From Candidatus Moraniibacteriota bacterium (lineage in GTDB: Bacteria > Patescibacteriota > Minisyncoccia > Moranbacterales > UBA1568), in NCBI GenBank assembly GCA_018062205.1, contig JAGOSP010000001.1:34810-98809 (forward strand): 64,000 bases of DNA, read 5' to 3'. Below are positions 28,447-33,548 of the stretch, one piece after another. The position numbers and the translations under genes are program-made. A model generated the notes under the pieces. That model searched no databases. It was not told the origin of the DNA and was given only the letters and a program-made list of their open reading frames with translations. Each line of letters starts with the position of its first letter. Position 1 is the first letter of the stretch.

Positions 28447-29139
28447 TTGATAATTCATAGATGTATGCAACAATCAGGAACTTTATTCATAGTCGCAACA
28501 CCCATCGGTAATTTGGGTGATATGACCTTACGCGCTCTCGAGACGCTCAAGTTGGTCGACGCGATTTTGTGTGAAGACACTCGGGTAACGAGCCGGCTGC
28601 TCGCGCACTATGAGATCAAGCGGCCGCTGGTTTCCTGTCACGAACACACGGACGACAGCAAACTCAAACAGTTGATTGGGCGTCTTGAGCAGGGTGAGTC
28701 ATTGGCCTTTGTGTCGGATGCTGGAACGCCGGGGCTTTCGGATCCGGGGAACAAGCTGGTTTCATTGGCGCTTGAGGCTGACATCGCGGTTGTCCCTATT
28801 CCGGGAGTATCAGCTTTGGCGACACTCGTGTCGGTAGCGGGAATCGATATGCGGGAATTCGTGTTCCTCGGTTTTCCACCGCACAAGAAAGGCCGGGAAA
28901 CATTTTTTAAGAAAGTAGCTGCCACCGAAATGCCCGTGATGTACTATGAATCGCCACATCGGGTATTGAAGAATCTCGAATTACTCGCGTCGTTTGCCTC
29001 CGGAAAAAGAGTTATCATCGGGCGGGAATTGACGAAACTGTTCGAGGAAATCGTGCGTGGTACCATAGAAGAAGCACTTGTGTATTTCAGCGAGCATCCG
29101 GGAAAAGTGAAGGGAGAATTCGCGGTGATCGTTTTTTGA
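28447..29139 (+). CDS. rsmI: 16S rRNA (cytidine1402-2'-O)-methyltransferase RsmI
   Basis: LFIVATPIGNLGDMTLRALETLKLVDAILCEDTRVTSRLL is the canonical tetrapyrrole-methylase-fold RsmI N-terminus. Confidence 0.9.
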   Translation: MIIHRCMQQSGTLFIVATPIGNLGDMTLRALETLKLVDAILCEDTRVTSRLLAHYEIKRPLVSCHEHTDDSKLKQLIGRLEQGESLAFVSDAGTPGLSDPGNKLVSLALEADIAVVPIPGVSALATLVSVAGIDMREFVFLGFPPHKKGRETFFKKVAATEMPVMYYESPHRVLKNLELLASFASGKRVIIGRELTKLFEEIVRGTIEEALVYFSEHPGKVKGEFAVIVF

Positions 29140-30515
29140 TTCCGGTGTGTAAGGGAGTCCATGATAAGGCATATATGGTATCTTTCGAACAATCATCTTT
29201 GGTTTCTGGAAAACAGGAAAAAACAGCACCGAAGGGAGCGGAGCATTTTGACGATGGGAAAAAAGTCAGGAAAGAAAATCCTGCTAGTCCGCATTTCGGA
29301 GTCGAGGAAGGAAACGTTTCTTCGGATATGGCTGTACCGGAGCAGAGGGCTACGACATCGCATCGGACTTTTCTTGCACAGCATGATACCGGGGCGCTTT
29401 CGACGATGCTCCGGCGCGAGGTGGAGATCAAGGCGCGACTGCGCGAAAAGCTTGAGAAAGAGTTTCGAGAAAAGGATGTCTCAAAACCTCCGAAATTGAG
29501 ACATGAATCTGTAGCGGGAATTGATCGGGCTTTAGCTTTAGCGGAGCCAGCGCGAGAAAAGCCTATTCATCCACAAGTATTTCGTGAGGCACGTGGGAAA
29601 TTGGTGGATCTTTTGGAAAAGCGGAACAAGTTTGTACTCTCAAAGAAAGGTTATGAACAATACTTTACCGATAAGCATTTGGAACGTAAAGGATTTCGTC
29701 AGGGGAATGTGGGTGATTGCTATGCAGTGGCCGCACTCCATGCCTTGAGTGAGTCGCCGAATTTCGAGATGCTTGTACGTTCCTCGTGCCGGCGTCTTCC
29801 GGATGGGACCTGGAAGGTGCGGATTCCACTTCTGGATGAGCGGGGTGCGATGATATCAATTTCTCCGGAAGAGATTTCGAGTCAGCGAAATACCGGCTTT
29901 TTGAAATGGGATGATACCCGAGGTCTGGATAGACGAAAGGTCCTTCATCCGCTCCAAGGGAGCGAAGGGATGCGCGTTTTGGAAGCGGCGTATATCAAGG
30001 CGAAATTCGGATCGGTGAACCGGCTTGCCGCGGAAGGTGGATATGGAAATGAAGTGCTCACTCATCTCTTGGGAAAAAAACAAGTCATTGACACGAGTTT
30101 TCAGATGGTACCTTCAGATAGCAGAGGCCAGCAATTTCAGGGAAAAGCCGAAGGAGACACGATTCCGTCGATTGATCGGTTCCTGCGAGAATTCGATCTT
30201 GAGACTTCTCTGGTGACGGTGAACTCACGTGCATTCACTCCTGGGCGATGGGATAAGATACGTCAATCATTCGGTTTTCCAAGAAGAATATATTATCGGG
30301 GGAGAGGGATAGAGAAAAGGTTTGTAAGAAATCATGTGTATTCACTTCTGAAAGTCGATCAGAAGAAGAGGGGAGTTATCCTTACGAATCCTTGGGATAC
30401 AGCCGAACCAATAGAGCTTTCTTTCGATCAATTGCGGGAGAACTTTAGGAGCGTCAGTGCTGTTCGTCTCAATCATGCGAAACTCCTTGAAAATGCAGCC
30501 TCTCGGGCGGAATAA
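29136..30515 (+). CDS. Calpain-like cysteine protease (papain-superfamily CysPc / peptidase C2-type catalytic core) with an N-terminal region of about 180 aa of unknown function
   Basis: FRQGNVGDCYAVAALHAL matches the calpain active-site consensus Q-G-x-x-G-D-C-[WY]-x-x-A-A, with Cys at codon 195 (nt 29718-29720). NHVYSLL matches the catalytic-His motif GHAYS. TNPWD matches the catalytic-Asn motif NPWG. Start overlaps the rsmI stop (ATGA). Confidence 0.6.
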   Translation: MIPVCKGVHDKAYMVSFEQSSLVSGKQEKTAPKGAEHFDDGKKVRKENPASPHFGVEEGNVSSDMAVPEQRATTSHRTFLAQHDTGALSTMLRREVEIKARLREKLEKEFREKDVSKPPKLRHESVAGIDRALALAEPAREKPIHPQVFREARGKLVDLLEKRNKFVLSKKGYEQYFTDKHLERKGFRQGNVGDCYAVAALHALSESPNFEMLVRSSCRRLPDGTWKVRIPLLDERGAMISISPEEISSQRNTGFLKWDDTRGLDRRKVLHPLQGSEGMRVLEAAYIKAKFGSVNRLAAEGGYGNEVLTHLLGKKQVIDTSFQMVPSDSRGQQFQGKAEGDTIPSIDRFLREFDLETSLVTVNSRAFTPGRWDKIRQSFGFPRRIYYRGRGIEKRFVRNHVYSLLKVDQKKRGVILTNPWDTAEPIELSFDQLRENFRSVSAVRLNHAKLLENAASRAE

Positions 30516-30559: not shown

Positions 30560-30829
30560 ATGGATTTACCATTGAAAGTGCCGAATGAACTTGCTTCTGA
30601 ATATGAACCCGCGATCAAGTCTGCACTGGTCGCGGAATTCGCTCTTGTTCCAGATACTCTCCATCTTTTGCTTGAGGATGAAGATGGGGCATACTGGAGC
30701 CGGGAGGAGCCAGGAACACTCTGCGTTCTGGTCCTTGGTCAGGAGAACGGACACCTCTATCTGGTGACAGGAAGATGGGATGAGGAGCAAGGGTGTTTGC
30801 AGGATTTCAAGTGTGGTATGCTCGGGTGA
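30560..30829 (+). CDS. Hypothetical small acidic protein (89 aa) directly downstream of the calpain-like gene
   Basis: ORF with a terminator immediately after it. No recognised motif. Confidence 0.4.
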   Translation: MDLPLKVPNELASEYEPAIKSALVAEFALVPDTLHLLLEDEDGAYWSREEPGTLCVLVLGQENGHLYLVTGRWDEEQGCLQDFKCGMLG

Positions 30830-30840
30830 GAATGAAAAAA

Positions 30841-30867
30841 GCTCAGCTGTGGTGGGCTGAGCCTTGG
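30841..30867. terminator. Bidirectional intrinsic terminator (GCTCAGC-tgtggtgg-GCTGAGC)
   Basis: Perfect 7-bp stem with an A-run upstream on plus, which is a T-run on minus. Lies between convergent ORFs. Confidence 0.6.
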
Positions 30868-30891: not shown

Positions 30892-31083
30892 TTAGCGCCG
30901 AGTCCACCGGAGCGGGTCCTCTGATGAAAGAGGCCGCAATGCCGTAGCGACGTGAGTGAAGAGGTCGCCGTTGGACCAGGTGCAGTCGCCGCCAGTAGCG
31001 CAGTCGGCTGAGAGGAGTAGTCTTACTAACAGGAACAGGGCAAGTGCGCCACCGGCCGAAGCGATATATCTTTTTTTCAACAC
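30892..31083 (-). CDS. Small secreted cysteine-containing peptide (63-aa precursor with a signal peptide)
   Basis: GTG start with an AAAGGAG Shine-Dalgarno 5 nt upstream. Signal peptide MLKKRYIASAGGALALFLLVRLLLSA, then a mature region DCATGGDCTWSNGDLFTH... An intrinsic terminator follows. Confidence 0.45.
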   Translation of the reverse strand: MLKKRYIASAGGALALFLLVRLLLSADCATGGDCTWSNGDLFTHVATALRPLSSEDPLRWTRR

Positions 31084-31169
31084 GGGAACTCCTTTCTGTA
31101 AGGTACGACGAAAAAAAAATAACTTAAATTTATTATATACCTAAATAATGAATTTGTCAATACTCATAT

Positions 31170-32753: not shown

Positions 32754-33548
32754 ATGCCTTTTGAAGGACGAGCGCTTCATACGAGAGGACAGGAAAAACC
32801 ACGAACGTCGACGGATTTGCCGGATTTCGAAATGCCTGGATTTACAGGATATACTGACCTTGACGGAAAACTATCTACTGGGTCGGTGCAAGAAGCACAA
32901 AGGCAGTTCGAAGCACTCCGGGGGTTTTCTTCTGTGAAGGAAGAGGAACCAGTTGTTCAGAAAGCAGCTTCTCAGAAGAGTCCAGAAACACAGAAGGTTG
33001 AGCCGATTGTCCTTGATGAAGATACAATTCTGGCGCGACAAAAAGCACTTGAGATGCCACGTGATCTCTCAGAAGAGATGTTGCTTCAGGCACTCGAAGC
33101 AAAATTAGAAGAATTTAAGGTGTACTTTGATCAAAAATGGAAAGGGCAAAATTTATTCCAAACGCATGCTGCAAAAGACGCTGATTTGGAGTGTCTAGCG
33201 ACTCTTCAGGGGCGTATTGCTGCCCAGCGCAGGACGACACGGAATGTAGTGGCCCATACTGAGCAGGAGAAAAAGAGGCAGGAGGAATTAGAGAGGATAG
33301 CGCAAGTAGAATTGGCACAAATTCGCGGAGATGTTTTGTTGGCGCAAGAGAAATTACTTGCGGAGTGGAATGGAGCACCGACAACTGCTGTATACCAGCG
33401 CCGTCGCATATATGATCAAATGAAGAGGTTAGGAAGCCTTTTGAAACCAGAAAATGAATTAGCTTTACGTGCCTGGTGGAATGAGGGGGCGTATATATCG
33501 GAAGATTTTTTTTCTGAGAATGATAAGGATGGCTTTAGTTATGTTTAG
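32754..33548 (+). CDS. Hypothetical protein, predicted coiled-coil, 264 aa
   Basis: ORF only. Charged and helical composition, no recognisable motif. Confidence 0.4.
   Translation: MPFEGRALHTRGQEKPRTSTDLPDFEMPGFTGYTDLDGKLSTGSVQEAQRQFEALRGFSSVKEEEPVVQKAASQKSPETQKVEPIVLDEDTILARQKALEMPRDLSEEMLLQALEAKLEEFKVYFDQKWKGQNLFQTHAAKDADLECLATLQGRIAAQRRTTRNVVAHTEQEKKRQEELERIAQVELAQIRGDVLLAQEKLLAEWNGAPTTAVYQRRRIYDQMKRLGSLLKPENELALRAWWNEGAYISEDFFSENDKDGFSYV

Follow-up and report, generated by a model that had tools for sequence, protein, structure and literature searches.

A predicted calpain-type protease and a small acidic neighbour protein form a candidate two-gene cassette in Patescibacteria

What kind of protein is encoded by the open reading frame (ORF) of 459 amino acids (aa) that starts at position 29136 of the analysed DNA, and does it work alone or together with a neighbouring gene? 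The window, i.e. the whole analysed stretch of 64,000 nucleotides (nt), comes from a genome of Candidatus Moranbacteria (Patescibacteria, also known as candidate phyla radiation, CPR), and a protein identical to this protease is recorded in metagenome-assembled genomes of Candidatus Moranbacteria. A preliminary description of the locus had proposed a calpain-like cysteine protease with a possible small partner, translationally coupled to the upstream gene rsmI. The ORF is present as claimed, and the core of that proposal held: sequence profiles and a structure model point to a calpain-type protease that is intact and has a small cognate neighbour, whose joint function we infer. Bacterial calpain homologs are rare, patchily distributed and varied in architecture, and they lack calcium-binding sites; only Tpr of Porphyromonas gingivalis has been studied, with a doubtful result, so that arguably none of these homologs has yet been characterised biochemically (Rawlings 2015; PMC4631099).

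The coordinates of all features are listed in Table 1. Residue numbers (Gln189, Cys195, His400, Asn418) follow the 459-aa numbering from the TTG codon at 29136. The three calpain motifs reported earlier, FRQGNVGDCYAVAALHAL, NHVYSLL and TNPWD, were all found in the translation and in that order, and the codon assigned to Cys195 is indeed TGC. Peptidase_C2 (PF00648) was the sole significant Pfam family in the window protease, with 24.7 bits against a cut-off of 23.8. Homologs scored 26–40 bits with this profile, and some (36–40 bits) aligned over profile positions 47–244, from the Cys to the His/Asn motifs. In an alignment of 31 homologs at 31–91% identity, Gln189, Cys195, His400 and Pro419 were invariant, while Asn418 was kept in at least 90% of the sequences and replaced by Asp in a few. 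The oxyanion-hole Gln six residues before the Cys, followed by Cys, His and Asn, is the arrangement expected of a calpain of family C2.

Family profiles searched against the PDB sequences retrieved calpains only (13 of 13 and 14 of 14 matches, best E-value 3.4e-4), and the QGGLGDC and HAYS...NPW segments of calpain-8 aligned with the family's Cys and His/Asn motifs. The family profile was needed for this result; a single-sequence PDB search with the protease gave noise only (crotonase, bL36m). NCBIfam and PADLOC yielded no match for either the protease or the small protein, and the catalytic-domain profile retrieved the same family again but no relatives outside Patescibacteria. One homolog is already listed at NCBI as ‘C2 family cysteine protease’, so that the protease on its own is a very divergent member of a known family. 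One further match, a 201-aa fragment on a 740,691-bp contig (P0227) that is 99% identical to the window protease and covers 63% of the catalytic-domain query, may be a truncated or split gene call.

The predicted structure led to the same assignment. In the AlphaFold model, residues ~150–459 were modelled with confidence, with a predicted local distance difference test (pLDDT) score mostly >90. The nearest folds of this model in the PDB were calpain protease cores: the best 15 Foldseek matches all belonged to calpain cores (calpains 5, 3, 1, 8 and 2/m-calpain) at E-values of 5.9e-7 to 6.4e-5, with target-normalised TM-scores of 0.44–0.50 against isolated calpain cores and 14–17% identity in the structural alignments. 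Other papain-like folds, such as phytochelatin synthase, C39 peptidases and cathepsins, were matched only at E >0.01. The model places Cys195 at the N-terminus of helix 195–205, and His400 and Asn418 on the adjacent strands 401–408 and 413–418, as in papain-like enzymes. Sequence profiles and predicted fold thus agree on a peptidase C2 (calpain) homolog with a complete putative Cys-His-Asn triad, as had been proposed, and we regard its assignment to the calpain family as solid.

Upstream of the catalytic domain the protein is variable. Its first 180 residues are rich in Lys (11.7%) and Glu (10.6%) and have no recognisable domain, as stated in the preliminary description; the only Pfam hit in the N-terminal region was DUF6375 at an E-value of 0.22, far below the cut-off. 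This part is predicted to be disordered or helical, with pLDDT <50 for residues 6–73, helices at 74–112 and 127–141, and an overall helical character from 74 to 162. The window protease has no signal peptide or membrane segment (maximum 19-residue Kyte-Doolittle hydropathy 0.71), and none of 65 homologs contained a hydrophobic stretch fit for a signal peptide or membrane helix. Homologs range in length from 361 to 866 aa, and the length variation lies N-terminal of the catalytic domain. A Pfam search of nine long members found, beyond the protease domain, only one sub-threshold Apolipoprotein match, and two members had no match at all. The most divergent homolog, from Peribacteria (L018:38-4957), is 1639 aa long and carries repeated modules and a hydrophobic stretch resembling a membrane segment before its C-terminal calpain domain.

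The most informative feature of the locus is the gene that follows. To count how often the two genes occur together, hidden Markov models of both families were run over every fetched locus, and loci extending past the protease gene were counted. The small gene was found directly downstream on the same strand in 12 of the 12 distinct clear loci, separated from the protease gene by −4 nt (an overlap, in L004) to about +60 nt. This is the arrangement of staphostatin-type pairs, in which a small co-oriented gene lies beside a clan-CA protease. The pair occurred in at least nine different neighbourhoods (Table 1), and no third gene was constant among them. Hence, adjacency maintained across different neighbourhoods strongly supports the earlier suggestion that the 89-aa ORF encodes a cognate partner. 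Judged from these gene arrangements, the protease and the small gene appear to constitute a self-contained two-gene cassette, inherited, moved and duplicated together.

Carriers in the species-level genome scan were labelled Moraniibacteriota, Falkowbacteria, Vogelbacteria, Elulimicrobium, ‘Saccharibacteria’ and Peribacteria; one carrier contig bears the label Bdellovibrionales but shares its gene order with the window. In Peribacteria, an 86-aa ORF (L018:4970-5230) starts 12 nt past the 1639-aa homolog and aligned end to end with the small-protein profile at 28% identity, which was not significant (E-value 0.09). A fixed link of the cassette to translation genes was considered and rejected, as other neighbourhoods carry UvrB, a CLC channel or a Mur ligase. 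Because translation genes are abundant in small CPR genomes, we did not take such neighbours as significant.

The small ORF, which had been described as acidic, starts 44 nt past the protease stop and encodes a protein with an isoelectric point (pI) of 4.17 and a net charge of −12; the median pI of its family is 4.7. Conversely, the catalytic domain of the protease is basic (pI 9.85, net charge +15; family median 8.9). The small-protein family comprises at least 146 clusters at 90% identity and is almost confined to Patescibacteria. Among 1.84 billion representatives clustered at 50% identity it had only 43 matches (E up to 0.001), of which several of the weakest are spurious. Long matches from this search that might have hinted at a function through fusion were dismissed: P0210, P0212 and P0217 are repeat-protein artefacts, and P0218, a coiled-coil protein, matches only weakly at its C-terminus and lacks a protease domain. 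Members are ~92 aa long and share an invariant Ala12, Gly43, Tyr45 and Cys55. Their C-terminus follows the pattern ...[LF]K[SC]D[IV][IV]S, with the final Ser present in 107 of 120 sequences. The structure model of the window member (pLDDT 87.3) consists of a helix (residues 8–27) followed by five strands.

The pair has also multiplied. On a 728-kb CPR contig, at least five protease/small-gene pairs follow each other head to tail on the same strand, with rplB on one side and the remainder of the S10 operon on the other, and a sixth cassette (L007) lies ~40 kb from this array on the same contig. A related contig has four pairs that are followed directly by rpsS-rplV-rpsC. We compared eight array pairs and the cassette 40 kb away. 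Mean identity between paralogs was 90% for the small proteins, 75% for the catalytic domains and 52% for the N-terminal regions, which were 234–563 aa long in the array paralogs. This comparison implies that the pair is the unit of duplication and that the N-terminal region is its variable part. Furthermore, the gradient in identity suggests that the partner addresses the conserved catalytic domain.

The gene order of the S10 operon is usually well conserved, and insertion of the cassette at the rplB/rpsS point seems very unusual. A separate observation concerns a 4.19-Mb contig of ~63% GC, i.e. guanine plus cytosine (L008:5525-7454; ERZ25070786 ctg150435l), whose sample also yielded the 728-kb CPR contig. 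Here, a small gene is preceded by the final ~17 codons of a gene for a calpain-like protein (...NASLLLNMREADREVG). The fragment lies inside a Fic-domain gene that is apparently split and belongs to a high-GC genome outside the CPR, and the local GC content drops to ~0.55. Either a chimeric assembly or a transfer of the fragment could explain this arrangement.

How does this pair compare with known systems? With the calpain core the protease shares the motif order and the papain-like fold described above, and like other bacterial calpain homologs it joins the peptidase domain to unrelated extra regions (Rawlings 2015; PMC4631099). It differs from calpains in its marginal similarity to solved structures, both by profile E-value and by sequence identity, in its Cys-His spacing of 205 residues, and in the absence of calpain III and EF-hand domains. 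Moreover, its family is confined to Patescibacteria and always accompanied by a dedicated small partner gene. The CPR-C4 protease is not a relative but an unrelated, vasohibin-like enzyme. The words ‘Parcubacteria’ and ‘candidate’ are absent from the text of Rawlings 2015 (PMC4631099), a dedicated partner protein is mentioned neither there nor in a paper on cyanobacterial calpains, and a full-text literature search for calpain together with Patescibacteria returned nothing relevant. The small partner family and the behaviour of the cassette therefore appear to be undescribed in the literature that we searched.

The closest parallels to the pair are found among other papain-like proteases. The lipocalin-like fold of staphostatin is an eight-stranded beta-barrel, and Spi resembles the propeptide of SpeB. 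Papain-like proteases can be co-transcribed with small cytoplasmic inhibitors, as in staphopain/staphostatin (C47/I57), SpeB/Spi (C10) and the Bacteroides pairs Bfp/Bfi and Btp/Bti, where a clan-CA protease gene likewise adjoins a small gene (~90–140 aa) without a signal peptide, with tight or overlapping spacing and with paralogous pairs in one genome, as here (PMC3462683). In contrast to the window protease, the proteases of these pairs are secreted zymogens. The folds of the partners differ as well, since a lipocalin-like fold is named for staphostatin in the title of a reference in PMC3462683, whereas the window partner is predicted to have a single helix and five strands. Unlike Spi, the window partner is unrelated to the N-terminus of its protease: an alignment of the two family profiles (hhalign) showed no similarity, and the idea of a detached Spi-like propeptide was discarded.

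Cystatins and stefins (I25) are small proteins in which a helix packs against five antiparallel strands, and they too pair with papain-like proteases; cystatin domain 2 of kininogen is a known calpain inhibitor. The loose resemblance of the window protein to them is one of predicted fold only; neither motifs nor a profile match make it a member of I25. Finally, the pair resembles polymorphic toxin/immunity systems in that the N-terminus varies and the C-terminal enzymatic domain is conserved, a small gene follows downstream, and the genes occur in tandem arrays and at varied places in the genome. It differs from these systems in having no recognised trafficking or secretion domain and in its putative immunity proteins, which are near-identical across paralogs.

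We propose that a lineage-specific, divergent calpain protease, predicted to be catalytically competent, forms a cassette with a small binding partner or inhibitor; in our judgement, this reading has an even chance of being correct. Within it, the small protein probably binds or inhibits the protease. The small acidic protein would bind the basic catalytic domain one-to-one, and would keep the protease, which has no signal peptide, in an inactive or properly folded state until release or delivery. The logic would be that of staphopain/staphostatin and SpeB/Spi, here with a partner of loosely cystatin-like fold. Obligatory adjacency, frames that occasionally overlap and the pattern of conservation would agree with a stoichiometric complex, in which the small protein would cover or control the catalytic domain; the opposite isoelectric points are consistent with binding. 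Physical binding, inhibition and substrates are what we infer, next to the observed family membership, triad conservation, fold, gene pairing and charge complementarity.

Several results weigh against this reading. As the protease has no signal peptide, the staphostatin logic of guarding a secreted enzyme is not directly transferable. A Foldseek search with the small protein gave nothing significant (best E-value 0.22), with cystatin-fold entries ranking first and third. Pfam searches of 52 members returned only noise such as TIMP and Chaperone_III (E >0.01) and no cystatin match, and a PDB profile search returned AbrB-type regulators only, which were not significant (E-value 0.4), and again no cystatin. 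The probability in an hhalign comparison with stefin A was 0.16%, and the cystatin motifs QxVxG and PW and the N-terminal Gly are absent from the small protein. The PF00648 match in the window protease spans only residues 175–210, around the Cys motif, and is barely above the cut-off. Moreover, the small protein is more conserved than its protease among the compared paralogs, as might also be expected of a cofactor or a substrate.

A bolder version of the proposal is a Patescibacteria-specific calpain system with an endogenous inhibitor of cystatin-like fold, as an independent prokaryotic counterpart of calpain/calpastatin. In some genomes it would have expanded into the S10-operon arrays, and its hypervariable N-termini would guide the protease to different targets, belonging either to the cell of the bacterial host or to the translation apparatus. 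We consider this version unlikely.

Two other roles for the pair were considered. In the one, possible but on the unlikely side, the protease is a toxin that an epibiotic CPR bacterium delivers to its host or to a competitor, with the N-terminus serving delivery or targeting and the small protein protecting the producer. The variable N-terminus before a conserved enzymatic domain, the small gene directly downstream, the array paralogs with their divergent N-terminal regions, the many different neighbourhoods, and the opposite charges of the small protein (acidic) and the enzyme (basic), a combination typical of toxin/immunity pairs, all point in this direction. So do the hydrophobic stretch of the 1639-aa Peribacteria homolog and a Salinispora calpain homolog fused to toxin domains (Tox-PL, YwqJ-deaminase; Rawlings 2015; PMC4631099). 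However, neither the 65 homologs nor the long members tested had a signal peptide, membrane segment or known trafficking domain, PADLOC contained no matching defence-system model, and no secretion genes were consistently nearby. Furthermore, diversification of cognate immunity proteins predicts the opposite of what was observed, namely small proteins that remain ~90% identical while the proteases have diverged. In the other role, the small protein is not an inhibitor but an obligatory subunit, folding chaperone, activator or dedicated substrate. Required partners are known from the calpain small subunit and from SVBP for vasohibins, and a folding role proposed for staphostatin is noted in PMC3462683. 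The stronger conservation of the small protein than of the protease among the compared paralogs, its strictly conserved C-terminus ending in Ser, its invariant Cys55, Gly43 and Tyr45, and the missing inhibitory cystatin motifs agree with such a role. On the other side, a ubiquitin-like modifier was rejected, as the fold is not a beta-grasp and the C-terminus lacks Gly-Gly; the lack of similarity to the protease N-terminus also argues against a detached propeptide, and the best fold matches of the small protein, none of them significant, are protease inhibitors. We regard a subunit, chaperone, activator or substrate as quite unlikely.

Two further alternatives concern the protease itself and its upstream neighbour. 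The short and marginal PF00648 match, the NHVYS in the window protein instead of the consensus GHAYS, and the many non-peptidase calpain homologs counted by Rawlings 2015 (PMC4631099) would suit a pseudo-protease, i.e. a non-catalytic calpain homolog that serves as a binding scaffold and whose motifs overstate its function. Yet Gln, Cys and His are invariant, and Asn nearly so, down to ~31% identity, which is the signature of selection on catalysis, and the predicted placement of Cys and His in the secondary structure matches that of papain-like enzymes. Because the catalytic residues are invariant, we consider a pseudo-protease very unlikely. The remaining alternative, raised by the preliminary description, is that the protease is translationally coupled and functionally tied to rsmI. 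The upstream gene is indeed rsmI (TIGR00096, E-value 4.5e-64) and the downstream gene is metG. The order rsmI-protease recurs in the relatives L001, L002, L009 and L010, and co-transcription of the two genes is plausible, since they lie on the same strand with a spacer of 35 nt. However, rsmI was not beside the cassette in at least eight other neighbourhoods, which contradicts a functional link. Coupling through an ATGA overlap did not stand up either: the four bases shared with the rsmI stop read TTGA, and the conserved start codon is the ATG at 29175, 35 nt past that stop. Hence, a tie to rsmI is hardly credible.

This start codon follows from several comparisons. The NCBI gene model of the identical protein has 446 aa, and thus starts at ATG 29175. 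In L009, a relative with 85% identity, the ATG follows the rsmI stop after 34 nt, against 35 nt in the window, so that the TTG is out of frame there. In L002, the called rsmI and protease genes are separated by a gap of 35 nt, and in both L001 and L002 the rsmI frame closes with TAA or TAG a few dozen nt upstream of the protease ATG. The true start is therefore almost certainly the ATG at 29175, as far as sequence comparison can tell, and the TTG at 29136 is unlikely. The NCBI model, the frame in L009 and the gap in L002 together imply an intergenic spacer of ~35 nt without overlap with rsmI. The GC content of the protease gene, described earlier as raised relative to the flanking genes, was unremarkable: 0.482, against a mean of 0.458 (standard deviation 0.031) for the 47 window ORFs of at least 150 aa (z = +0.8, rank 8 of 48), while rsmI itself reached 0.505.

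Downstream of the pair, a GC-rich hairpin starts 9 nt past the stop of the small ORF. This hairpin resembles a terminator of the minus-strand ORF, and the plus-strand transcript may end there too. The convergent 63-aa ORF exists as described and is apparently a real gene, with a perfect promoter (31160..31132; 12 of 12 positions of TTGACA-17-TATAAT) and the ribosome-binding site AAGGAG. A 54-aa ORF occupies the corresponding position in L002/L003 and is 49% identical to it across 47 aa, and the two share LSADCxTGGxC after a hydrophobic N-terminus. Its proposed link to the protease module was not borne out. We rejected it as a third component, for it is conserved only where local gene order is conserved; no match was found beside non-syntenic cassettes, and because of this absence the gene is not part of the module.

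Two other ORFs in this region were noted. Between metG and tatD lies a Lys/Glu/Gln-rich ORF of 264 aa (32754..33548, plus strand) without a match in Pfam, NCBIfam or PADLOC; syntenic relatives have an unannotated ORF in its place (161 aa in L002). In L002, a GIY-YIG-nuclease-like frame broken by a stop codon (L002:6990-7250, plus strand) lies between the small gene and metG; it is absent from the window.

Table 1. Features of the protease locus in the window (64,000 nt) and neighbourhoods of the cassette elsewhere.
Feature	Position or locus	Strand	Basis
Mechanical ORF, 459 aa counted from TTG	29136..30515	+	ORF listing
Calpain-like (peptidase C2) gene, 446 aa from conserved ATG	29175..30515	+	NCBI model, L009 spacer, PF00648
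Variable N-terminal region; residues 14–73 predicted disordered, 74–141 Lys/Glu-rich helices	29175..29585	+	AlphaFold model, Pfam
Conserved catalytic domain, residues ~151–459, papain-like, closest to calpain core	29586..30515	+	pLDDT, Foldseek, profiles
Gln189 (oxyanion hole, CAG 29700-29702) to predicted catalytic Cys195 (TGC 29718-29720), motif RQGNVGDC	29700..29720	+	Invariant in 31 homologs
Predicted catalytic His400 (CAT 30333) to Asn418-Pro419-Trp420 (AAT 30387; 30387-30395)	30333..30395	+	Homolog alignment, calpain HAYS...NPW
Small acidic putative partner, 89 aa, unannotated family; helix then five-stranded sheet	30560..30829	+	ORF listing, model
GC-rich hairpin between convergent genes	30838..30865	.	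10-bp stem, T-run on minus strand
63-aa ORF, apparently real gene	30892..31083	-	Promoter, ribosome-binding site, hairpin after stop
Tandem array between rplB (L2) and rpsS (S19)	L020:10001-22166, L019:1-9646	same strand	ENA ERZ25070786 contigs ctg150230c, ctg139434l
Neighbourhood rsmI/metG	window, L002, L009, L010		
Neighbourhood ileS/recO	L004		
Neighbourhood of hypothetical genes	L006, Falkowbacteria contig		
Neighbourhood next to rbfA-infB	L007		
Neighbourhoods with CLC channel, CCA-adding enzyme, FemAB/Mur ligase, release factor	L011, L012, L013, L016		
Neighbourhood S10 operon	tandem arrays		

The pair is compact and strongly conserved, with a catalytic domain of ~310 aa and a partner of ~92 aa. 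As a tractable system, it could help to show how calpain-type proteases that lack calcium-binding domains are kept under control. The small-protein family, as yet unannotated, could be given a name and a model. The genomes of Patescibacteria are very small, and these organisms are believed to live attached to a bacterial host. A cassette that they have kept, moved and amplified is likely to matter for their biology.

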